This document shows, piece by piece, positions 3,859 to 64,000 of a stretch of DNA of 64,000 nt. The position numbers were made by a program, and so were the translations under genes. This DNA comes from a virus (lineage: Duplodnaviria; Heunggongvirae; Uroviricota; Caudoviricetes). Each line of letters opens with the position of its first letter. Positions within the stretch are counted from its first letter, which is position 1. The DNA lies in the IMG/VR virus record IMGVR_UViG_2939142107_000001, positions 1 to 64,000 of that record. The stretch is one strand, 5' to 3'. Below the pieces are notes generated by a model, which was not told the origin of the DNA, did not search any database, and saw nothing but the letters and a program-made list of their open reading frames with translations.

Positions 3859-5565
3859 TTGAGTAACTTACGCGAATACCAGAATCGTATTGCAGATATC
3901 GCAAAACGCTCTAAAGCTGTGCTTGGCTGGGCAAGCACTGCGCAGTTCGGTACTGATAACCAATTCATTAAAGATGATGCCGCGCGTGCCGCATCTATCC
4001 TTGAAGCTGCACGTAAAGACCCAATTTTTGCGGGTATCTCTGATAATGCCACCGCTCAAATCGCTACAGCGTGGGCAAGTGCACTGGCTGACTACGCCGC
4101 AACACATAAATCTATGCCACGTCCGGAAATTCTGGCCTCCTGCCACCAGACGCTGGAAAACTGCCTGATTGAGTCCACCCGCAATAGCATGGATGCCACC
4201 AATAAAGCGATGCTGGAATCAGTCGCGGCAGAGATGATGAGTGTTTCTGACGGGGTTATGCGTCTGCCTTTATTCCTGGCGATGATCCTGCCTGTTCAGT
4301 TGGGGGCAGCTACCGCTGATGCGTGTACATTCATTCCGGTTACGCGTGACAAGTCCGAAATCTATGAAATCTTTAACGTAGCGGGTTCTTCTTTTGGCTC
4401 TTATGCTATTGGTGATGTTCTGGACATGCAATCCGTTGGCGTGTACAGCCAGTTGCGCCGCCGCTATGTGCTGGTTGCAAGCTCCGACGGCACCAGCAAA
4501 ACTGCAACCTTCAAGATGGAAGATGTCGAAGGTCAGAATGTCCCGATTCGCAAAGGTCGCACAAACATCTACGTTAACCGTATTAAGTCTGTTGTTGATA
4601 ACGGCTCCGGCACTCTGCTTCACACATTCAATAACAAAGCAGGCGAACAAATCACTGTTACTTGCTCTTTGAATTACAACGTTGGTCAGATTGCCCTGTC
4701 GTTCTCCAAAGCGCCGGATAAAGGCACTGAGATCGCCATTGAGGTGGAGATCAATATAGAAGCAGCTCCTGAGCTGATCCCACTTATCAACCACGAAATG
4801 AAGAGTTACACCCTGTTCCCAAACCAGTTCGTCATCGCGGCTGAGCACACGGTACAGGCGGCGTATGAAGCACAGCGTGAATTTGGTCTGGATCTTGGCT
4901 CCCTACAGTTCCGCACCCTGAAGGAATACCTGTCCCATGAGCAAGATATGCTTCGTCTTCGTATCATGATTTGGCGAACTCTTGCGACCGACTCCTTTGA
5001 TATTGCACTGCCAGCTAACCAGTCCTTTGATGTGTGGGCAACCATCATTCGAGGCAAATTCCAGACGGTATATCGCGGTATTATTGAGCGTATTAAATCT
5101 TCTGGTGCGATGGGGATGTATGCCGGTGCTGATGCGGCATCTTTCTTCAAACAATTGCCGAAGGATTTCTTCCAGCCAGCAGAAGATTACATCCAGACCC
5201 CATACGTCCACTACATTGGCACTCTGTTCGGCAACGTCAAAGTGTTCGAAGTACCAGAAGGTATTTGTACGAACCTGACCGCCGACGGTATCCAGTTCAG
5301 CCCAATGGATGTGCTGTGCTACGTCCGTGATGAAAATCCGGGCAAAGCGGGCTTCGTAACTGGTGATGCAGTCCCGGCTGTCCCATTCCAGCATCCGACC
5401 ACCCCGGCACTAGTCAACCGAACCACTCTGTGGGGTTCGGCTATCAACGATATGCACCCACGTAACGGCGCTGACTACTTCACGCGTGTAACTCTGACTA
5501 TGGCCAAAAATGGCGGAATTAACTTCCTGACCGGTAACATGATTGATGCCGGTGACTCTGAGTAA
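3859..5565 (+). CDS. Major virion structural protein, probable major head protein (P1 gene 23 position)
   Basis: Long ORF; likely start is in-frame TTG at 3859, preceded by RBS AAGGAAGAG (the ORF track starts at TTG 3838). About 568 aa, next to parS as in P1. Function from synteny and size only. Confidence 0.5.
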   Translation: MSNLREYQNRIADIAKRSKAVLGWASTAQFGTDNQFIKDDAARAASILEAARKDPIFAGISDNATAQIATAWASALADYAATHKSMPRPEILASCHQTLENCLIESTRNSMDATNKAMLESVAAEMMSVSDGVMRLPLFLAMILPVQLGAATADACTFIPVTRDKSEIYEIFNVAGSSFGSYAIGDVLDMQSVGVYSQLRRRYVLVASSDGTSKTATFKMEDVEGQNVPIRKGRTNIYVNRIKSVVDNGSGTLLHTFNNKAGEQITVTCSLNYNVGQIALSFSKAPDKGTEIAIEVEINIEAAPELIPLINHEMKSYTLFPNQFVIAAEHTVQAAYEAQREFGLDLGSLQFRTLKEYLSHEQDMLRLRIMIWRTLATDSFDIALPANQSFDVWATIIRGKFQTVYRGIIERIKSSGAMGMYAGADAASFFKQLPKDFFQPAEDYIQTPYVHYIGTLFGNVKVFEVPEGICTNLTADGIQFSPMDVLCYVRDENPGKAGFVTGDAVPAVPFQHPTTPALVNRTTLWGSAINDMHPRNGADYFTRVTLTMAKNGGINFLTGNMIDAGDSE

Positions 5566-7224: not shown

Positions 7225-8040
7225 ATGAGCAAAAACTTTTTTCAATCCGGGGCATTTTTGGGGAATGGACTGTCCCGTTTCGCTTTGAACTCTGATCCTG
7301 TGCAGCTGATGGAGTCTGCCCGAGCAAGCGCCGAACCGCCAACAGATCCGGTTATTAATAATAATCCGGAACCGGCGGCACAGACTAACGATAACGTTCC
7401 ATCTGCCCCGGCTCCAGAGCAAATCCTGGAAGGGAAAGACGGTAAAGAATGGACCGTCGAACAGGCGCACCAGATGATTCTGGAAGCTGCAAATCGAAGT
7501 GCTATGCAGAATGCGTTGAGTGATGCGGCCGACGCCGTTTTCTCCTGGGCTGATAGCGGTGATCTGACTTTCGACTCCCTTGATGGTTTCGTTCAGGCTA
7601 TCGCTGGTATCTCTGATGACGACGACTCCGAAGTTACAGAAGAACAGGACGATGCCTATAACGAAGCATGGGCAAATGTTGCTGACTTCCTCGCAGCATG
7701 CGGTGTAGATGATGACCTGATCGAAGCACTGGCTGACGATGAAGACGACGACGCAGCTGCTGATGTTGGTGCCTCTATCGCTGGTTTAGATAGCGACGAC
7801 CGTGATGAACTGGAAGCGGCGTTTGTTGTTGCTGGCACTTCTGATGAAATGCTGACTGAAGCATTTAAGAAGGTTGTTCGTAACGGTGAGATCAAACTCA
7901 TCCGTAAACGCCTGCGGAAAAAACGTCTGACTGCGGCTCAAAAATCGGCGCTGAAAAAAGCGCGTCGAAAAGCCCAGACCGGCGCGGCAAAACTTGCCCG
8001 CAAAAAGTCAATGAAACTGCGCCGTAAGCGCCTTGGCTAA
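7225..8040 (+). CDS. Hypothetical virion-associated protein: acidic Asp/Glu-rich body with a Lys/Arg-rich C-terminal tail
   Basis: 271-aa ORF, ATG at 7225 ten nt after the sheath stop; C-terminus KLIRKRLRKKRLTAAQKSALKKARRKAQTGAAKLARKKSMKLRRKRLG. Confidence 0.5.
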   Translation: MSKNFFQSGAFLGNGLSRFALNSDPVQLMESARASAEPPTDPVINNNPEPAAQTNDNVPSAPAPEQILEGKDGKEWTVEQAHQMILEAANRSAMQNALSDAADAVFSWADSGDLTFDSLDGFVQAIAGISDDDDSEVTEEQDDAYNEAWANVADFLAACGVDDDLIEALADDEDDDAAADVGASIAGLDSDDRDELEAAFVVAGTSDEMLTEAFKKVVRNGEIKLIRKRLRKKRLTAAQKSALKKARRKAQTGAAKLARKKSMKLRRKRLG

Positions 8041-23601: not shown

Positions 23602-24437
23602 TGCAACGTTCCTGGTTTAATAATCGGCTTACATCAGCTAAGCAAAAGTCATTGCTCTATAAATCATTGGCTGATTTGGTTCAGTCAATGATGGACACCT
23701 TTGTTGACCCATGGTTGGAGCGAATTACCAACCGGAAGTCTATTTTTTCCATGAGCAAGGAGGATCTGGAGACCAGGACAAATGAACTTGGCCAGTTCTT
23801 TACTATCAGAACCTCAAACTCATCTTCCGTTCCGATGTTGTTACAACAGCGGCTTGATGAGATTCACTTTAAGGGGACTGAACGCCCTATAAACCAGACA
23901 ATTTACCGCGAATTTAATGGTATTTCTGTTTTATGGGATCCGATATATGCACCGGTGGACCTTGAACGTCATCCCTATGGCACAGTTCTAATACCAGAAA
24001 GCACACTGGAAACTACCGGCGGCACATTCGGCGAGATGTTTCTGACTTCCAGAGGGATGATCAGTATTCCCATAAACGACCTGGCCCGGACAATGGGTAT
24101 TACTGGCACGATAGATCAGTCCGCAATTACAGAAGAAATTCTCAGAAAGTTTAATCAGTTCGTAAAGCCTCTACTGCCACTGCATATAGTGTTTGATGGG
24201 CTTACGCTCTATTTGTCGGTTGTTGTGAATGAACAGGCCGACATGATCACTTTGAACGAGATTTCTGATACCGAAAAAGCGTACTGCTGGTTTGAAACTT
24301 CGGATACAACTTCGCTTACTGGAGTTACGTCGATTAGCGCCCCGATCACCGCAACGCCTGGTGGCACTATTGTGAAAGCGACACCTACGTTTGATCGCAC
24401 ACGCGCAGATGATTTGTTGCTGGATAGCGACGCCTGA
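23598..24437 (+). CDS. Baseplate/tail-fibre attachment protein (hypothetical, 279 aa)
   Basis: ATGA overlap with upstream gene. Confidence 0.4.
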   Translation: MMQRSWFNNRLTSAKQKSLLYKSLADLVQSMMDTFVDPWLERITNRKSIFSMSKEDLETRTNELGQFFTIRTSNSSSVPMLLQQRLDEIHFKGTERPINQTIYREFNGISVLWDPIYAPVDLERHPYGTVLIPESTLETTGGTFGEMFLTSRGMISIPINDLARTMGITGTIDQSAITEEILRKFNQFVKPLLPLHIVFDGLTLYLSVVVNEQADMITLNEISDTEKAYCWFETSDTTSLTGVTSISAPITATPGGTIVKATPTFDRTRADDLLLDSDA

Positions 24438-24515
24438 CAATCACCCCGTCCGCAGGGCGGGGTGACAAGTTACTTCTCTTACAATGAGGCTTCACAACAT
24501 TGATTAGGGAAAATC

Positions 24516-24950
24516 ATGTCTGACGTCTCAACAAACCTCTATAAGAGTCAGTTGTTGGACTATTACTATCAGCGGCGCGCTGAATCGTCCATTAACAAAG
24601 GCTCTCGATTTTTAATCAGCAAGGCCGTTTTCGGTACCAGTTCACTGGTTACTAAGAAAGGAGATGGCACTTATGAGATTGGAGAACTGCCAAAGGCTTT
24701 CGATCTGGCAGAACTGACCAGTAAATTTTGCACCATCAACCTCGTCCCAACCTACTCAGGCGGGATAATTACTGTCCGAATGGACCTTGATCAAAGCCAG
24801 TTGCAGAAAGGGAAAAACTACCCATTCAACACTCTGGTTGTTCTGGATAACGAGAACAAGCCAATCGCCATTATTTGTGTCCAGGAAGACTCGCTGTATG
24901 TGGGCAAAACATATACCGCAGTTATGGCCATAAACACGACTACAGCATAA
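24516..24950 (+). CDS. Tail fibre-associated protein (P1 R position)
   Basis: 144-aa ORF immediately upstream of the tail fibre gene. Confidence 0.45.
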   Translation: MSDVSTNLYKSQLLDYYYQRRAESSINKGSRFLISKAVFGTSSLVTKKGDGTYEIGELPKAFDLAELTSKFCTINLVPTYSGGIITVRMDLDQSQLQKGKNYPFNTLVVLDNENKPIAIICVQEDSLYVGKTYTAVMAINTTTA

Positions 24951-24961
24951 GGATATGCTTG

Positions 24962-27900
24962 ATGAATGACGTTACAGTTGTCACATCGGTTACTTACCCA
25001 TCACCCGAGTCGTTGGCTCTGGTGGCTGATGTGCAATACCACGAACCATATCTGTCAGCCGCGCTAAACCGAAAATTCAGGGGAATTGTTGACCCTGGAT
25101 TTTATGCCGGTTTTTTTCCTAAGCCTGGCGGTGGGATGAACCTGTTAATCACCTCAGTGGATGGTGATAAAACCGCTGGCGCGGCGTCAGTGAATATTGG
25201 TGAATTCTACCAGGTAACTATTCAGCAGCGTAAGGATATTTCTCTTGCACTTAGCGCAGGTAAGAAATATGCAATTGTGCTGAAGGGAAGATACCTCCTT
25301 GGAGAAGATTCTTATCAGGTTAATACCGCGTCACATATTCATGCGGCTGAATTTGTTGCCAGAACCTATACCGATTCATATCAGTTAGGAGATGGGGAAC
25401 TGCTTGTTTGTACGGTGAATATCCCTGCTGGCGTATCTGCTATTACTAAGGAAATGATAGATGTATCCGACCGCATCGATCTCGCGATAGGCATTGAAAT
25501 TTCCGACTCTGTAACCAGTACCAGAAGTGATGTCGCTGCAAGTTCGCTGGCGGTTAAAAAAGCCTACGATCTGGCTAAAAGCAAGTATACGGCGCAGGAT
25601 GCAAGCACAACACAAAAGGGATTAGTTCAGCTCAGTAGCGCAACTAACAGCGACAGCGAAACAATGGCGGCTACCCCTAAAGCCGTTAAGTCTGTAAAAG
25701 AGCTGGCTGATACCAAAGCGCCAATAGAAAGCCCGAGTCTGACAGGAACGCCAACCGCGCCGACGGCAGCGCAAGGTACAAACAGCACGCAGATCGCAAA
25801 TACAGCCTTTGTTAAGGCAGCTATAACGGCACTTATCAACGGTGCACCTGGCACACTGGATACGCTTAAAGAAATAGCTGCTGCGATCAATAACGACCCG
25901 AATTTCAGCACAACTATCAACAATGCTCTGGCTCTTAAAGCTCCTTTAGCAAGTCCTGCATTAACGGGAATACCTACTGCGCCTACCGCTGCACAGGGTA
26001 CGAATAACACGCAGATTGCTACGACCGCTTATGTAAGAGCTGCTATCTCTGCATTGGTCGGCTCATCACCTGAAGCTCTTGATACCCTGAATGAGCTTGC
26101 AGCAGCACTGGGCAATGACCCGAACTTTGCGACAACAATGACAAATGCGCTGGCAGGCAAACAGCCTCTGGATGCAACTTTAACCGCGCTTGCTGGTCTT
26201 GCGACAGGCGCAAATAAATTGCCGTACTTTACCGGTACAGACACTGTTTCCCAGACTGATTTAACGTCAGTCGGTCGCGATATCCTGGCTAAAACAAGCA
26301 CACTGGCTGTTATCCAATACCTTGGTTTAAGAGAAATCGGAACCAGCGGCGAAAAGATCCCCCTGTTGAGCACAGCTAATACCTGGAGTTCTCAACAGAC
26401 TTTCAAAGGTAAGACAGCGTTTTCAGCCGCTGCTACATTTAGTGCCGGGATAGCAGGAGCCATCGAGCCGGAAAAAATTGGCGACCAGACGGTTGATCTT
26501 AACAACCTGACCATCAGCTCAGATGTCGGGGCAATTAAATATTATTATTGTCCAACCTTTGGAGGTGGTGCAAATATCACCAACAAGCCTGACGGCGTAA
26601 ACGGTAACTTTTTGCTCCGTGTAGAGTCGACTCGCAAAGTTTCTGCTTCGGATTATGCGAACATGCAAACGCTGATCAGCAACGACACAAAACGTATATA
26701 CGTTCGCTTTGTTGTTAATGGAAGCTGGGCAGCGTGGAGTCAGGTTGTTGTTTCCGGATGGGGTCAGGATGTAAGTGTTAAGTCTCTTAGTGCCGTGGCT
26801 CTTAGTGGATCTTTGACAGGTAATGCATCCACCGCCACAAAACTGCAAACAGCACGCACAATCGGCGGAGTGTCGTTCGATGGTAGTGCCAATATCGACC
26901 TGCCGGGCGTGAATAAAGCAGGTAATCAGAGCACTACCGGCAATGCTGCAACCGCTACGAAACTGCAAACAGCCCGCACAATCAACGGTGTTAAGTTTGA
27001 TGGTTCTGCGAACATTTCGATACCAACAATTACGTCCAGAGGGCGTGTTACTGCGCTCACCGATACAACACAAGGTGCTGCTACTGGATTGCAGATGTAT
27101 GAGGCGTACAACAATAGCTACCCGACCGCGTATGGCAACGTATTGCACATGAAAGGTGCGAGTGCTGCTGGTGAGGGCGAGTTGCTTATTGGCTGGAGTG
27201 GTACGAGCGGTGCACATGCGCCGGTTTTCATTCGCTCCCGAAGAGATCACACTGATGCGGCATGGTCAGCGTGGGCGCAGGTATATACATCAAGGGACTC
27301 CATTCCTGGTGTGAATGCCACTGGCAATCAGAATACAACTGGCAATGCAGCAACTGCTACAAAACTACAGACGGCAAGAACTATCGGCGGAGTTAGCTTT
27401 GATGGTACTGCGAATATTAATTTACCTGGTGTTAACGTTGCGGGTAATCAGAATACATCCGGTAACGCGGCTACAGCGACCAAGTTACAAACCGCTAGAA
27501 CTATAAATGGGGTGTCGTTTGACGGTTCTAAAAACATTGAGCTAACTCCAAGGTCTATAGGCACGATCAACTCAATAACAATGTCTTTTAGTGGTGGTGC
27601 TGGATGGTTCAAGCTGGCAACTGTAACCATGCCACAGGCCAGTTCCGTGGTTTACATAAGCCTGATTGGTAGTTCTGGATATAATGTTAACTCCCCTATG
27701 CAGGCTGGTATATCTGAACTTGTTCTTCGTGCGGGAAATGGGAATCCAAAAGGTCTTACTGGTGCGTTATGGCGACGGACATCGGTTGGATTTACTAATT
27801 TTGCATGGGTGAATACATCCGGTGATACCTATGATGTTTATGTTGAAATAGGTAATTTCGCCACGGGTGTAAATATCCAGTGGGATTATACCAGTAACGC

Positions 27901-29662
27901 CAGCGTAACGATTCATACATCACCATCTTATACAGCGAATAAACCAACAGGCCTGACAGATGGAACTGTATATGTAATTTACAGTTCGCACATTAAACCG
28001 ACCGCCACGGATGTCGGCGCATTACCAATAACCGGAGGAAATCTCAACGGCGGTTTAACGGCTACTGGTGAGATCATTTCAAAATCGGCGAATGGTCTGC
28101 GTATTGCCTACGGAAACTACGGATTCTTTATCCGAAACGATGGTTCAAACACATATTTCATGTTGACCAATTCGGGTAACAGCCTGGGAACCTATAATAA
28201 TTTAAGGCCGCTTATCATTAACAATGCCAATGGTACTGTTACGATCGGTAATGGACTCAATGTTACTGGCGGCATCAATGGTAGTTTGAACGGTAATGCT
28301 GCAACTGCAACAAAACTGCAAACAGCACGCACAATAGGCGGAGTGTCATTCGATGGTAGTGCCAATATCGACCTGCCAGGTGTGAATAAAGCAGGTAATC
28401 AGAGCACTACTGGCAATGCTGCAACTGCAACAAAACTGCAAACAGCACGCACAATCGGCGGAGTGTCGTTCGATGGTAGTGCCAATATCGACCTGCCGGG
28501 CGTGAATAAAACAGGTAATCAGAGCACTACCGGTAATGCAGCTACGGCTACCAAATTGCTAACAGCGCGTACCATTAATGGGGTTTCATTTGACGGTTCT
28601 GCGAATATTTCACTGTCACCAGCAAATATTGGTTGCCCGGCATCTCCTACTGGTTGGTTAAAAACAGGTAATAACGGTGAGTCAATAACGACAGCTCAGT
28701 TAGTTACTTTGTTGCAAAATAATGGGGCATTCAATACGAAAGCATGGTTCGCTCGTTGTGCATGGTCGTATGCAACTAGTGCATCCATACCAGACAGTGA
28801 AACTGGTTGTGGCATTATTCCACTGGCGGGTGCTGTGATAGAAGTATTCAGCAATAATACCGACAATTACACTATTCGAATAACAACAGCCACGACGACA
28901 AGTGTCTCTGGTGCACTCACTAATGCGGAGTTTATCTATGTGTTTAACGTGTCTGGCAGCACAAGTTATTCACCTGGATGGCGCAGAGCGTATAACACTA
29001 AAAATAAACCTACTACTACTGACCTTGGCTTGAGCGATGAAAGTGGATACGTTGGGCGCCTGATAAGCACTAGGGTTTTCACGTCATCAGGTACGTACAT
29101 CCCGACGCCAGGAACAAAACGGCTCAGGGTCACAATAACGGGCGGCGGTGGCGGAGGGGGCGGCTGCAAGGCTACATCCAATAATGAAACGTTTTTCGGT
29201 GCTGGCGGTGGGGCCGGTGGAACAATAATTTCAATAATGACCCCGACACAGAATAGTTATCCAGTCACTATCGGCGCAGGTGGGGCCGGTGGTGTTAGTG
29301 CGACGAACGGCACCAGGGGCGGGAATAGCGTATTCGCATCGTTAATTGCTCCTGGTGGCGCAGGCGGCGGGAAAGTGGGTGTTACAAACACAAACGGCGG
29401 TAACGGAGGTGTGCCGAGTACTGGCGATATCCGCATCACTGGTGGAGATGGAGGCGACGGTCAGTCCGGAAATATCAGCGTCAGCGGTGAAGGCGGAACA
29501 TCGCACTGGGGCGGCGGTGGACGCGCAGGCGCTGGCGGTGGTGTTATCGGTAAAGCATATGGTTCAGGCGGAGGTGGCGCATACGATGCCGGTTATAGCG
29601 GAACCAGTATGACGGGCGGGAAAGGTGCTTCAGGGATTTGTATTATCGAGGAGTTTGCATAA
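24962..29662 (+). CDS. S: Tail fibre protein S: P1-like conserved N-terminus, central 40-aa tail-fibre repeats, C-terminal glycine-rich adhesin-like domain
   Basis: Probable start ATG 24962 with RBS AAGGA (ORF track begins earlier at 24875). N-terminus MNDVTVVTSVTYPSPESLALVADVQYHEPYL... matches recalled P1 S. Repeats GNAATATKLQTARTIGGVSFDGSANIDLPGVN recur at least 7 times. C-terminal ~170 aa are Gly-rich (GGGGGGGG, GAGGGAGG...). Confidence 0.8.
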   Translation: MNDVTVVTSVTYPSPESLALVADVQYHEPYLSAALNRKFRGIVDPGFYAGFFPKPGGGMNLLITSVDGDKTAGAASVNIGEFYQVTIQQRKDISLALSAGKKYAIVLKGRYLLGEDSYQVNTASHIHAAEFVARTYTDSYQLGDGELLVCTVNIPAGVSAITKEMIDVSDRIDLAIGIEISDSVTSTRSDVAASSLAVKKAYDLAKSKYTAQDASTTQKGLVQLSSATNSDSETMAATPKAVKSVKELADTKAPIESPSLTGTPTAPTAAQGTNSTQIANTAFVKAAITALINGAPGTLDTLKEIAAAINNDPNFSTTINNALALKAPLASPALTGIPTAPTAAQGTNNTQIATTAYVRAAISALVGSSPEALDTLNELAAALGNDPNFATTMTNALAGKQPLDATLTALAGLATGANKLPYFTGTDTVSQTDLTSVGRDILAKTSTLAVIQYLGLREIGTSGEKIPLLSTANTWSSQQTFKGKTAFSAAATFSAGIAGAIEPEKIGDQTVDLNNLTISSDVGAIKYYYCPTFGGGANITNKPDGVNGNFLLRVESTRKVSASDYANMQTLISNDTKRIYVRFVVNGSWAAWSQVVVSGWGQDVSVKSLSAVALSGSLTGNASTATKLQTARTIGGVSFDGSANIDLPGVNKAGNQSTTGNAATATKLQTARTINGVKFDGSANISIPTITSRGRVTALTDTTQGAATGLQMYEAYNNSYPTAYGNVLHMKGASAAGEGELLIGWSGTSGAHAPVFIRSRRDHTDAAWSAWAQVYTSRDSIPGVNATGNQNTTGNAATATKLQTARTIGGVSFDGTANINLPGVNVAGNQNTSGNAATATKLQTARTINGVSFDGSKNIELTPRSIGTINSITMSFSGGAGWFKLATVTMPQASSVVYISLIGSSGYNVNSPMQAGISELVLRAGNGNPKGLTGALWRRTSVGFTNFAWVNTSGDTYDVYVEIGNFATGVNIQWDYTSNASVTIHTSPSYTANKPTGLTDGTVYVIYSSHIKPTATDVGALPITGGNLNGGLTATGEIISKSANGLRIAYGNYGFFIRNDGSNTYFMLTNSGNSLGTYNNLRPLIINNANGTVTIGNGLNVTGGINGSLNGNAATATKLQTARTIGGVSFDGSANIDLPGVNKAGNQSTTGNAATATKLQTARTIGGVSFDGSANIDLPGVNKTGNQSTTGNAATATKLLTARTINGVSFDGSANISLSPANIGCPASPTGWLKTGNNGESITTAQLVTLLQNNGAFNTKAWFARCAWSYATSASIPDSETGCGIIPLAGAVIEVFSNNTDNYTIRITTATTTSVSGALTNAEFIYVFNVSGSTSYSPGWRRAYNTKNKPTTTDLGLSDESGYVGRLISTRVFTSSGTYIPTPGTKRLRVTITGGGGGGGGCKATSNNETFFGAGGGAGGTIISIMTPTQNSYPVTIGAGGAGGVSATNGTRGGNSVFASLIAPGGAGGGKVGVTNTNGGNGGVPSTGDIRITGGDGGDGQSGNISVSGEGGTSHWGGGGRAGAGGGVIGKAYGSGGGGAYDAGYSGTSMTGGKGASGICIIEEFA
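28292..28531 (+). repeat. Two near-identical 120-bp tandem units within S, with a third close copy at about 26818-26937
   Basis: Read directly from the sequence. Confidence 0.85.
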
Positions 29663-30072
29663 TGAATACGTCATATGCAGTTATTGAAAATGGGATGGTT
29701 GTGAATGTCATTGTCTGGGATGGCGAGGCTGAATTCACAGTGCCGGATAATCAGCAGCTCATTAATATTTCTGATATCAGTGAGCAGCCCGGAATCGGCT
29801 GGGTGTATTCAGACGGGGGATTTACTGCGCCACCCACTCCGGAACGTTCTCATGATGAACTGGTAGCTGACGCTGAACAGAAAAAAAAGTCGCTGATTGA
29901 TACCGCAATGGCTTCCATTAGTCTTATTCAACTGAAATTACAGGCCGGACGGAATCTTACGCAGGCTGAAACCACCCGTCTTAACGCTGTGTTGGATTAT
30001 ATCGATGCGGTGACCGCAACGGATACCAGCACTGCACCAGATGTCAATTGGCCAGCGTTCCCGGAGGCGTAG
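29662..30072 (+). CDS. U: Tail fibre assembly chaperone (U/Tfa-like)
   Basis: ATG at 29662 overlaps the S stop (TAATG); 136 aa; N-terminus MNTSYAVIENGMVVNVIVWDG... is typical of tail fibre assembly proteins. Confidence 0.7.
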   Translation: MNTSYAVIENGMVVNVIVWDGEAEFTVPDNQQLINISDISEQPGIGWVYSDGGFTAPPTPERSHDELVADAEQKKKSLIDTAMASISLIQLKLQAGRNLTQAETTRLNAVLDYIDAVTATDTSTAPDVNWPAFPEA

Positions 30073-30490
30073 CCCATTAAAAAAATATCTGGAGCGCTGG
30101 AAGTAACGACTGGTTCCAGTGCATCCAGATAAGATGATTACTGTTCATGCTTCAAGAGCGAGCGCATACTGCATCCAGGCCAATCTAACTTTCATTCGAC
30201 CAGAGTGTCACCTCTCAAAAGCATTTTTTAACTCTGGTCGTTCAGCCTTTTTGCCGCTCGCCTTATCCTCAAAAATTAGCTCACATCCTGCGCTTTCAAG
30301 GGCATTTCGTTGCTAAGCAGTGTTTTGTTCATTTGTTGATACGCGTACATAGCCTATTAGCATATTTTCTACTCACTATCGTTATTTATAGCAAGCTGCG
30401 GATTTTGATTAACAGAAACCAGTGTGTGTGGAAATCACAAAGTGCATACCGTGCCCCAATGATGTTTTATTGAAAAGCGGGGGTACTTTA

Positions 30491-30772
30491 ATGTTTGATT
30501 TAACAATATTTTTTATAACCATCCTTGGAGGCGTGCATTCGTTTCTGAATGGGGTTCGTGAAAAACGTTACGAAGCGTCATGCAGGCAATTGATGGCCGA
30601 GTGTATTGCTGCCGTACTTGCAGGCTTTATAGGCATGTATTTCGCGGAATATAAGGGTATGGATGAAAGTCTTCAGAATTGCGTGACTATTATTTGCAGC
30701 ATCAATAACAAGCTCATTCTTGAAAAGTCACAAAGGATTATCGATTCGTACCTCAATAGAAATGCCTCTTAA
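30491..30772 (+). CDS. Holin-like small membrane protein (paralogue of LydA)
   Basis: About 93 aa from ATG 30491 (RBS GGGGG); hydrophobic segments MFDLTIFFITILGGV... and IAAVLAGFIGMYFA; similar topology to the next gene. Confidence 0.4.
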   Translation: MFDLTIFFITILGGVHSFLNGVREKRYEASCRQLMAECIAAVLAGFIGMYFAEYKGMDESLQNCVTIICSINNKLILEKSQRIIDSYLNRNAS

Positions 30773-30813
30773 GCAACAAATGACCGGTTGAGAAGTTACT
30801 TTGCATACCATTA

Positions 30814-30833
30814 CCTCCTGACAACGTAGGAGG
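30814..30833 (+). promoter_or_regulatory. Hairpin pairing the lydA RBS (CCTCCT-N8-AGGAGG)
   Basis: AGGAGG at 30828-30833, 6 nt before the GTG start at 30840, is complementary to CCTCCT at 30814-30819. Confidence 0.35.
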
Positions 30834-30839
30834 GAACTT

Positions 30840-31169
30840 GTGCTTGACACACAGGAATTAGCTCCAGTTGCTATTGCGTTCCTGCTTTCAGTAATTGGTG
30901 GGATAGGCACGTTCCTGATGGATGTCCGAGACGGTCGCCAGTCTGGCAATTTGTTGGGATTGGTTACGGAGATCTTTGTTGCAGTGACAGCTGGCGCGGT
31001 GGCGTACCTATTGGGGCAACACGAGGGCTGGGAGTTATCAATTACGTACTTAATGGTAACGATAGCCAGCAATAACGGTCATGAGGTGATTTCAGGGATG
31101 AAACGAGTGAATATCGATAGCATTCTGAATGTTCTTACAAGTTTGGTGAAAAAGGGAGGCGGGAAATGA
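30840..31169 (+). CDS. lydA: Holin LydA
   Basis: 109-aa ORF with GTG start, two hydrophobic segments, followed by a 147-aa gene and the darA operon as in P1. Confidence 0.6.
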   Translation: MLDTQELAPVAIAFLLSVIGGIGTFLMDVRDGRQSGNLLGLVTEIFVAVTAGAVAYLLGQHEGWELSITYLMVTIASNNGHEVISGMKRVNIDSILNVLTSLVKKGGGK

Positions 31170-31609
31170 TTGGCTGGGGTGTATGCGTTCTTGCGTTAGC
31201 CTTAGCCGATCGCTGTTTGCTAAAACGCAAGGACATCACGCATTTAGAACTTGGTGATGTGGAAATTAAACCGGGTTTCATCCGAGTGCCGTTCAAATAC
31301 CGGTCTAAATTCCCGTTTTTGCGCGGCGCAACGGTCAGATATTGGATCCGCGATGTTCAGAAGCCGACGACAGTGATTGAAGGCGAACAACGTTGTCTGA
31401 CGTCGGCTGAACAGGGCGAAAACAGTGAATGGTTGTACATACCCACTGAATATATGGGTATAGGAGATCGACTGTGGCATTTCAACGTCATGGTTACGCA
31501 TGGCGACTCGTTCATTAACCCGTTGTATCGGATTTTCCCTGTTACTCAGCAAATCCGCAGAAGTTACGTAATAAATCTCGCACAGGATGTGTCAGATGAC
31601 GAAAAATAA
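31166..31609 (+). CDS. lydB: Antiholin LydB
   Basis: 147-aa ORF overlapping the lydA stop; size and position match P1 LydB. Confidence 0.55.
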   Translation: MIGWGVCVLALALADRCLLKRKDITHLELGDVEIKPGFIRVPFKYRSKFPFLRGATVRYWIRDVQKPTTVIEGEQRCLTSAEQGENSEWLYIPTEYMGIGDRLWHFNVMVTHGDSFINPLYRIFPVTQQIRRSYVINLAQDVSDDEK

Positions 31610-32198
31610 GTATGCAACGGTCGATTTTGACCAGGTTAATGAAAAGGGGCTGAAATCCCTTATCGCGGCGATCAATAAAACCGGGGTTACGGTAATTGAG
31701 GTTGACTCCAGCAACCGCGCAACAACGAAAGATGGCGTTAAAGTTAAAACCGCAAAGCTGGTTCTTAACGACGGACAAATTCTTGCCATACAGGTAAACG
31801 ATACTGGCGATATATCGTCTGTGAAACTGAATGGAAAAGCTATTCCTAACGCTCAGTCGCCGGATATCAAGACGCTTGGTACCGTCATGGGACAAGCGGC
31901 CCGCAAAAACTCCGCAAAATTCCAGAAATCACTGATCGCCAAAGCGAAGCGTGTTGCCAATCCGGTAGACAAGAAACCGGCAGTTAAATCCAACTTTCAG
32001 CGCCTGCAAGAAGCAAAACAGCGGAATGCTCAGGTGGTTGCCGCTTATAAGTCCGCGCAGAATTCGGTGTCTTTCAATCAACAGCAGATCACTGATTTGC
32101 GGGCGAAGCTGGATAAGGAGACGGGCCGACTCAATAACGAAAAGGCACGGAATGGCGAACTCAAACGTCGTCTTAAGCAACTGAAAGCAGGAAATTAA
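31596..32198 (+). CDS. hdf: Hdf (homologue of a DarA fragment)
   Basis: Probable start ATG 31596; shares the motif KNSAKFQ and flanking coiled-coil with the downstream DarA (AARKNSAKFQKSL vs LAEKNSAKFQRAQ). Confidence 0.6.
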   Translation: MTKNKYATVDFDQVNEKGLKSLIAAINKTGVTVIEVDSSNRATTKDGVKVKTAKLVLNDGQILAIQVNDTGDISSVKLNGKAIPNAQSPDIKTLGTVMGQAARKNSAKFQKSLIAKAKRVANPVDKKPAVKSNFQRLQEAKQRNAQVVAAYKSAQNSVSFNQQQITDLRAKLDKETGRLNNEKARNGELKRRLKQLKAGN

Positions 32199-52945: not shown

Positions 52946-53134
52946 AGCGCCCCTTATAAAAAAGAAAAGCCACCAGCGGCGGCTTAGCAATACAACTGAA
53001 GGTAGCGCCCGGTACTCAGACTGTGCCGTCCATGGAATATTTGAAAAGGGATCCATCCGTACCGGGCATGTGATGATTCTGACTGAAGTCACTTGTCAGT
53101 TGTCAATTATTTCAGATTAAAAATAATATATTTA

Positions 53135-53695
53135 TTAGTGCATGATGTTTGCCATCTCATAAGCGTCAGCCAGCAACTCCATCTCTGACTTGTTCAGCAA
53201 GGTGAATTCTTTCTTGCCTCCAACCACACCATCGGCATGAACAGGGACCAGCCAGGGGTATTTTTCTCTTACTTCAGCCGGTGCTGCATGCTGGTGGTGC
53301 CATCTACAAAGTGGCAATTGCTTTTTGTGACAACCAGGCGCGGTACGACCGGAGATATGGTGCAGAGACACCTCTTCAGATATTACTCCATGCATATAGC
53401 AGGCAATGCAGGGGAGAGCACCAAGAGCATTGGCTATGCGCCGCTCCTCCGCCGTCGGTGTTCGTCCCTTCAAGCCACGAGATTTTATTTTTACCGCGCT
53501 TTTCCGCGTTTTGCTGGCTGGTGGGCGCTCTTTCTGTTTAGCGATACGGCGGTCGATAGTATTCCGCATTTTCTGATATTGAGATTCTCGCCAGGCCGGA
53601 TCAGCCAACTTCTCCCGTTGCCGAGCGATCGCTCGTTCTCTGGCTGCCTTCTGCCACTTACGGTGCTGTTCAATTTTTTGTTCGATTGTTTTCAT
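53135..53695 (-). CDS. ref: Ref (HNH-type endonuclease, recombination enhancement function)
   Basis: 186 aa from the internal ATG at 53695; His/Cys-rich HNH-like region (CIACYMHGV...HHISGRTAPGCHKKQLPLCRWHHQ); operator-like site upstream; position next to cre as in P1. Confidence 0.7.
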   Translation of the reverse strand: MKTIEQKIEQHRKWQKAARERAIARQREKLADPAWRESQYQKMRNTIDRRIAKQKERPPASKTRKSAVKIKSRGLKGRTPTAEERRIANALGALPCIACYMHGVISEEVSLHHISGRTAPGCHKKQLPLCRWHHQHAAPAEVREKYPWLVPVHADGVVGGKKEFTLLNKSEMELLADAYEMANIMH

Positions 53696-55778: not shown

Positions 55779-55821
55779 TAGGTCTGAAGAGGAGTTTACG
55801 TCCAGCTGCGCATAAAAATCA

Positions 55822-55838
55822 ATAATTATTAGAGCAAT
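55822..55838 (-). promoter_or_regulatory. C1 operator (Op99-type)
   Basis: Plus strand ATAATTATTAGAGCAAT; 15/17 match on the minus strand. Confidence 0.6.
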
Positions 55839-55898
55839 AAATTTTGAGAGAAAAATCCCACTCCACCAGCCAAAAACTGGATTGTTTTTCATAGTTGT

Positions 55899-55925
55899 TT
55901 GACAATTGCTCTAATAAATTATAGT
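55899..55925 (+). promoter_or_regulatory. C1-operator-overlapping promoter directed toward coi-c1: -35 TTGACA, operator ATTGCTCTAATAAATTA (55905-55921), -10 TATAGT
   Basis: Read directly; operator is 16/17 to consensus; spacer about 15 nt. Confidence 0.6.
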
Positions 55926-56080
55926 TTTGCCGCCGTTTCGTAATACGACTTTGGATTCACTATTTAATGTGTCTTCAGCGTTGTAGAGCGGCTCAGAAGG
56001 AAATGAGCAAACAGGGAAACCTTATACAACGGCATTACAGCTATGCATTGCTCATCTTACACACAGCGCAATGTTGTTAG

Positions 56081-57275
<1,195 letters not shown>

Positions 57276-57358
57276 TTAGATTACCCCAGCATGGATCATG
57301 GGTGAAACAGTAGGTCAGAGCTTCAGGCTCTGTGTTGTCAATACAGTGAGGCATAATT

Positions 57359-57568: not shown

Positions 57569-57678
57569 ATGCACTAATAAATCTATTATTTTCGTTGGAT
57601 CCTTCTATAATGGTGGCCAACAACTCCCAGTGTAATCCGCTGTGAGTTGTTGGCCATGTCAATTCTGGAGGAGGATCA

Positions 57679-63992: not shown

Positions 63993-64000
63993 AAGCAGAG

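Follow-up and report, generated by a model that had tools for sequence, protein, structure and literature searches.

We propose that the window, i.e. the whole 64,000-nt stretch of DNA analysed here, is a near-copy of pCARB35_01, a P1/P7-like IncY phage-plasmid in which an ancestral P1-type C-segment inversion switch is now destroyed; we put the probability of this reading at about 0.88. The loss of the switch is secondary, because the spacer downstream of the fibre genes is a readable switch fossil, made up of the end of a second fibre-assembly gene (delta-tfa') and a broken invertase gene with its enhancer (psi-cin), and because an orphan crossover site (cixR) persists within the tail fibre gene S.

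The window is a near-copy of an IncY phage-plasmid

Megablast of positions 24000-32000 against phages matched P1, P7, RCS47 and SJ46; against plasmids, the same query matched 776 entries, mainly from E. coli, with two 89,643-bp plasmids at 100%. The coordinates of NZ_CP031654.1 (pCARB35_01, IncY) coincide with those of the window, and a direct comparison over 64 kb showed the two to be identical except for one SNP (position 28482) and one IS5 insertion. The sequence past base 64000 was therefore represented by the remaining 26.8 kb of pCARB35_01, the window making up ~70% of the element. The backbone synteny of a P1-like (Punavirus) phage-plasmid was found, with repA/parAB, Cre, c1, R-S, lydCAB-dar, portal and terminase, and phd/doc, and the whole-plasmid annotation of pCARB35_01 includes an IncY replicon. 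Both flanks of the fibre locus are 93-99% identical in DNA sequence to P1 and P7.

The IS5 element that is missing from pCARB35_01 occupies positions 56081-57279 of the window (1199 bp, of which 1195 bp are the element and 4 bp its TTAG target duplication), with its transposase ORF on the minus strand at 56227-57243. The junction of this insertion had no 100% match among the plasmids and E. coli genomes searched. With C1-operator-like inverted repeats (55815-55928) upstream of it and the coi/c1 immunity genes shortly downstream, the element might affect c1 expression. In a whole-window inverted-repeat scan, short AT-rich pairs (ATTGCTCTAATAAAT-like) were observed at 53120-53143 / 57569-57592 and at 55815-55838 / 55905-55928. 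These repeats resemble P1 C1 repressor operators and may be of that kind.

Switch debris between the chaperone gene and lydC

The features of the region that follows the fibre gene S are:

29662-30072, plus strand: tfa/U-like chaperone gene, 136 aa, whose ATG overlaps the S stop codon (TAATG)
30074-30157, minus strand: delta-tfa', the decayed 3' end of a second, convergent fibre-assembly gene (homology, translation)
~30157-30363, minus strand: psi-cin, the 5' ~215 nt of a Cin DNA-invertase gene (tblastn, nucleotide alignment, RefSeq)
30363-30225, minus strand: cin nt 1-139, 130/139 identical to P1
between 30225 and 30224: site of cin nt 140-150, deleted in the window (frameshift)
30224-30163, minus strand: cin nt 151-212, 49/62 identical to P1
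~30157: point at which homology to P1 is lost, beyond cin nt ~217
30274-30345, no strand assigned: Cin recombinational enhancer sequence (sis; cin nt 19-90), 68/72 identical to P1
30364-30490, no strand assigned: intergenic region between the divergent cin and lydC, with homology to the stretch of P1 that carries the predicted P1cin and P2cin promoters
30491-30772, plus strand: lydC (holin-like), Pfam Phage_holin_3_3, in the position of lydC in P1/P7
30840-31169 and 31166-31609, plus strand: lydA and lydB, start of the dar operon, 93-99% identical to P1/P7 (identity, annotation)

The stop codon of the tfa/U-like ORF (TAG, 30070-30072) and the lydC ATG at 30491 are separated by 418 bp. The earlier note on this DNA had described a fibre-assembly gene, ~420 bp of non-coding DNA and then holin-like genes. 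Both neighbours were correctly named: the gene before the gap (29662-30072) falls in the Pfam family Caudo_TAP and that after it (30491-30772) in Phage_holin_3_3. As to the gap itself, no intact gene was found between the end of tfa (30072) and the start of lydC (30491), but the DNA is not featureless: it consists of debris of a convergent tfa' (its 3' end) and of cin (its 5' ~215 nt).

The cin remnant is recognisable in some detail. Minus-strand translation from 30363 yields P1 Cin with Leu17 changed to TAG, and the start codon, promoter region and enhancer of cin are in the canonical position and orientation relative to P1/P7. Three lesions are present, namely the TAG at codon 17 (30315-30313), the 11-nt frameshifting deletion and the truncation near codon 72. 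In RefSeq, pCARB35_01 carries at 30195-30363 on the minus strand the annotation ‘recombinase family protein; frameshifted; internal stop; missing C-terminus’. From 30163 onward, identity to P1 is ~93%, and the gene order after lydC (lydA, lydB, hdf/odaE, darA) matches that of P1 and P7.

Next to the stop codon of the chaperone gene, the ~84-bp delta-tfa' has suffered a deletion within it and a frameshift. Its DNA is homologous through 30132 to P2-like prophage loci, in which PGAP annotates a truncated minus-strand tfa at the corresponding place; the minus-strand translation of delta-tfa', ending in ...SYLDALEPVVTSSAPDIF, matches the conserved Tfa C-terminus of locus L013, ...WLDYLYAPERSDTSGTSDIKWP.

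A single ORF of at least 50 aa lies wholly within the spacer (30119-30316, plus strand, 65 aa). It was rejected as a gene, having no Pfam match and being antisense to psi-cin. A promoter and terminator scan of the spacer gave counts not above those of shuffled sequence.

One crossover site and no partner for inversion

One further switch component was located, inside the coding sequence of S:

26310-26335, no strand assigned: orphan cixR crossover site within S, 26/26 identical to cixR of P1 and P7

We searched for its partners both in the window and in the rest of pCARB35_01. Allowing up to 7 mismatches to each of the P1 26-mers and scanning both strands, we found no second cix site. The invertase queries P1 Cin, P7 Cin and SJ46 Pin gave no tblastn match (E<=10) other than the fragment at 30363-30153, and the recombinases in the whole-plasmid annotation of pCARB35_01 are limited to Cre. 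Neither blastn nor tblastn detected an inverted copy of Sv or U, the Sv and U queries matching only themselves and direct repeats inside S. Inverted repeats of at least 20 nt were absent from 24000-31000, and the whole-window scan revealed none that bracket the fibre genes, only short pairs, some of them C1-operator-like.

Measured against a working switch, the locus thus retains codons 1-~72 of a small serine invertase that, when intact, has ~186 aa with a catalytic N-terminal and a C-terminal DNA-binding domain; a single cixR in place of two inverted cix sites around a segment; and ~84 bp of the tfa' 3' end in place of an inverted Sv'/U' alternative cassette. The Fis-dependent enhancer in cis is present as a candidate, at the level of sequence only (30274-30345), and is moot without the remaining switch parts. 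Invertases of the Hin/Gin/Cin family need two sites and an enhancer in cis on one supercoiled molecule. With one cix site, no invertase and no alternative cassette, inversion is therefore not expected, and a chromosomal Pin-type invertase acting in trans would find neither a second cix site nor an alternative cassette as its substrate.

These results uphold what the earlier note had claimed from the window, namely that it has neither cin nor any invertase-sized ORF (tblastn gives only the broken 5' fragment), that it has no inverted copy of the S 3' end (the Sv and U searches and the inverted-repeat scans were negative) and that host-range switching by DNA inversion is probably absent, as the stub with its stop and frameshift, the one cix site and the missing Sv' indicate. 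The search it had proposed for serine recombinase genes and cix-like sites had a divided outcome: there is no intact invertase, but one perfect cixR persists.

The same note had named a cin-like gene and inverted S/U copies outside the window as the finding that would overturn it. Since the window is only ~70% of the element, an intact switch, with a cin-like gene and inverted Sv'/U' copies, might sit in the other ~27 kb of the plasmid. We regard this as exceedingly unlikely. The other 26.8 kb of NZ_CP031654.1, a plasmid identical to the window over 64 kb save for the SNP and IS5 and annotated with Cre alone, contain no serine recombinase match at E<=10 and are likewise free of Sv or U copies and of cix-like sites; moreover, the broken cin occupies the canonical position.

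A single mosaic fibre and its chaperone

Upstream of the chaperone gene, the fibre operon comprises:

24516-24950, plus strand: R, first gene of the fibre operon, ~95% identical in DNA to P1/P7, annotated CDS
24962-29662, plus strand: S tail fibre, 1566 codons, uninterrupted ORF, with Pfam Phage_fiber_2, Gp34_trimer and Gly_rich_2

Homology to P1/P7 runs at 95-96% across 24000-26409, covering the P1-like constant part (Sc) of S. Beyond it, distal stretches of S are 70-86% identical to P7 Sv and Sv', while another is 91% identical to Yersinia phages. From ~29006-29025 on, the glycine-rich tip of S is 87-92% identical to P2-like E. coli prophages, and this match, which spans the final ~215 codons of S, continues through tfa as far as position 30132. 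The ORF being uninterrupted over 1566 codons and its segments matching P1 Sc, P7 Sv/Sv', Yersinia phages and P2-like prophages, the earlier description of a single long mosaic fibre holds. One phage donor for the whole of distal S was considered and rejected: blastn against phages gave patchy mosaics, and the search of E. coli genomes pointed to P2-like prophages.

The middle of S (26812-28608) contains four direct repeats of ~204 nt, 69-87% identical, which start at 26812, 27334, 28285 and 28405. Among plasmids that share the tfa/psi-cin junction described below, S is 1566 (window), 1515 (CP020522) or 1394 aa (pSvP1) long, and the alignment of S breaks in the repeat region, which suggests repeat-mediated length change.

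The 136-aa chaperone matches Caudo_TAP (PF02413) over profile positions 25-131 of 131, with E=7e-22 and 78.4 bits, the gathering score being 22.1. With this score and its position directly downstream of S, it belongs to the Caudo_TAP chaperones (lambda Tfa / P1 U / P2 G).

PGAP calls both genes pseudogenes, S as 24962-28495 ‘missing C-terminus’ and tfa as 29722-30072 ‘missing N-terminus’, and an older PLSDB table lists 27629-29662 as a separate ‘glycine-rich domain’ CDS. The tfa gene has an in-phase ATG at 29662, and, for S at least, the partial call seems to be an annotation artefact caused by the mosaic make-up of the protein. The SNP at 28482 was rejected as the cause of the call on S, being an Ala/Val change that creates no stop.

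The 1566-aa S and the 136-aa Tfa are predicted to be functional. A late promoter, LPs, mapped upstream of R by homology from the P7 annotation, would drive R, one S and one Tfa in a fixed orientation, and each virion lineage would show one receptor-binding tip only.

The same junction in other plasmids

We then asked how widespread the tfa/psi-cin junction is. With positions 29860-30300 as the query and a requirement of at least 80% coverage, it was found in 43 PLSDB plasmids, of the ~776 that match the locus at all; pSvP1 (NZ_MN510446.1) is among the 43. The junction arose once; the window, pSvP1 and CP020522 share both the junction and the site of a deletion in cin, the deletion comprising 10-12 nt depending on the plasmid. 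Like the window, pSvP1 has an orphan cixR, whereas the TAG at codon 17 is specific to the window lineage when compared with pSvP1 and CP020522. A shared junction with a lineage-specific TAG fits ongoing neutral decay.

The intact state is also well represented. Cin-like DNA of at least 90% identity occurs in ~245 plasmids, and six sampled at at least ~95% are all essentially full-length; with full-length cin in the sampled plasmids and the junction in 43, both states are therefore common.

Invertible regions are mixed in sequencing reads and can mislead assemblers. An invertible segment with long inverted repeats could on such general grounds have been collapsed or mis-joined here, hiding cin and a second cassette, but the chance of this is practically negligible. 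The same junction recurs in 43 complete plasmids, each assembled independently, as well as in one chromosomal insertion; the stop, the frameshift and the lineage-specific indels in the remnant are marks of real decay; and an assembly collapse would not cut cin at codon ~72.

The chromosomal case is NZ_CP097001.1 of E. coli (locus L010, 1-15508), where the same tfa/psi-cin junction lies in a P1-like segment beside TnAs1 and IS26 remnants. There, a phage-plasmid or part of one has been captured by transposon-mediated rearrangement.

Much of this has been reported before. Venturini et al. (2019) found the C-segment of pSvP1 incomplete, noted a ‘partial invertase orf’ and judged tail switching to be ‘presumably lost’ (PMC6906374), and a survey of 54 representative P1-like phage-plasmids recognised lydC-cin-Sv'-U'-U-S as a hypervariable region (PMC9603915). 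The loss of the switch, this junction and the call of a recombinase pseudogene are thus already in the literature or in RefSeq. The earlier note, sound as to the absence of the switch, had overlooked both this published or annotated status and the fact that the spacer is the wreck of a switch, so that the loss is secondary and not primitive.

How the junction may have arisen

All DNA between the 3' end of the convergent tfa' and cin codon ~72 is gone; it comprised most of tfa', the Sv' cassette and cixL, together with two-thirds of cin on its 3' side. The cin that remains has decayed further by acquiring the codon-17 stop and the 11-nt frameshifting deletion. As to the event itself, the tip, tfa and delta-tfa' were probably imported as one block from a P2-like prophage in which tfa' was already truncated, an origin that we slightly favour over internal deletion; the right-hand junction of the import, an illegitimate one, would have fallen inside cin.

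The other origin, for which we would give somewhat less than even odds, is one internal deletion of ~2.5 kb from tfa' to cin nt ~217 in an intact C-segment, with the same functional outcome. Its model is pSBF45b (NZ_CP067234.1), a plasmid with the same type of tip and tfa (88% identical), followed by a full convergent tfa'', Sv', cixL and a full-length cin of 561 bp, which is plausible as an ancestral-type arrangement; the homology of the window to pSBF45b ends at position 5161 of locus L015 and restarts at position 7692, which is cin nt 212. However, 88% identity is low for the tip and tfa module of a parent, and delta-tfa' is longer by 25-43 nt in the window and CP020522 (~84 and 102 nt, respectively) than in pSBF45b (~59 nt). 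This extra stretch resembles the delta-tfa' of the P2-like prophage STN0717. Given the longer delta-tfa' of the window and CP020522, the exact layout of pSBF45b is therefore not the parent. The delta-tfa' of pSvP1 equals that of the window, both being 18 nt shorter than the one in CP020522.

Possible retention of the remnants

The 5' fragment of cin, the enhancer and cixR could be under selection, whether because they regulate lydC or because they offer Pin-family invertases of the host a landing site. Nucleotides 1-139 of cin are still 93.5% identical to P1 and the enhancer is conserved at 68 of its 72 positions; a 5' remnant of cin is found also in SJ46 and, in shorter form, in phi456; cixR is retained in every relative examined; and the homology of SJ46 breaks exactly at cixR. 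Selection of this kind is nonetheless very unlikely. An identity of 93% is the divergence of the flanking backbone, so that no extra constraint is evident, and cixR lies within the coding sequence of S, which is enough by itself to explain its conservation. Moreover, Ro157c2YLVW is without any cin, phi456 with only 19 codons still plaques, and the invertase family requires the two sites and cis-acting enhancer mentioned above on one supercoiled molecule.

A more specific version, in which cixR, the enhancer and the cin stub form a docking site where Pin-family invertases of resident prophages bring in P2-like or e14-like fibre-tip cassettes, is less likely again. If it were true, slow cassette capture would replace fast inversion. 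It is without positive support, because the remnants are no better conserved than the backbone and the stub is partly or wholly missing from other lineages.

Significance

Virions of this plasmid lineage are expected to bear one fixed receptor-binding tip, and their host range in infection and transduction to be narrower and more predictable than that of P1. A fixed tip bears on the spread of such phage-plasmids among E. coli, resistance-carrying relatives included, although the consequence is modest. The locus is a clean example of the decay of an inversion switch, whose leftovers are a 5' gene stub, an enhancer and, within coding sequence, a crossover site, the last two both orphaned. Besides, it illustrates how tip and chaperone cassettes pass between P2-like prophages and P1-like plasmids. 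Neither is new in kind.

Comparison with known systems

The C-segment of P1/P7 (cin, cixL, cixR, Sv/U and Sv'/U') occupies the same locus as the spacer and fibre genes studied here, in the same flank order, with R-Sc on one side and lydC-lydA-lydB-dar on the other. In contrast to P1/P7, cin of the window breaks off at ~codon 72 and carries additional inactivating lesions, there is no cixL, Sv' or U', and distal S and the chaperone are unrelated modules.

Closer in state are phi456, vB_EcoM-Ro157c2YLVW/JL22 and SJ46, all of which, like the window, combine a P1 backbone with a single S and chaperone and an orphan cixR. They differ in what is left of the invertase gene. In phi456, which is without a working Cin, 19 cin codons are left and the breakpoint is unlike that of the window; in Ro157c2YLVW, cin is entirely gone and an acetyltransferase gene and a U' fragment are found instead. 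In both, cin was lost independently, at other breakpoints. The phage phi456 plaques on MC1061 (PMC10967188), and a cin-less P1-like phage can therefore be infectious. SJ46, on the other hand, keeps 69 cin codons and has gained a complete foreign pin cassette, hence it is still invertible. Its homology to the window and P1 stops exactly at cixR (window 26336; locus L005, 3811-3837 and 7838-8062), and its 69-codon cin stub adjoins the imported pin cassette, which has the opposite orientation. This layout fits an exchange of cassettes at the crossover site.

Among chromosomal prophages carrying the tip and tfa, the inversion switch appears to be decaying too, in P2-like and other elements. At two such loci (L011, 6211-7285; L012, 5588-6650), a ClpP-like protease gene comes after the truncated tfa', along with a recombinase pseudogene that has an internal stop and lacks its N-terminus.

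Finally, P2-like E. coli prophages such as those of strains 1297KP and STN0717-20 have the tip, tfa and the truncated convergent tfa' in common with the window, at 87-92% identity. In the prophages, this cassette sits on a P2 H-type shaft within a P2 tail operon, whereas in the window it is joined to a P1 Sc shaft via the repeat-rich middle of S. Haggard-Ljungquist (in 1992) and Sandmeier (in 1992/1994) reportedly found tip and chaperone cassettes to be exchanged horizontally among P1, P2, Mu and lambdoid phages. The sharing of tip and chaperone between the window and these prophages fits such horizontal cassette exchange.
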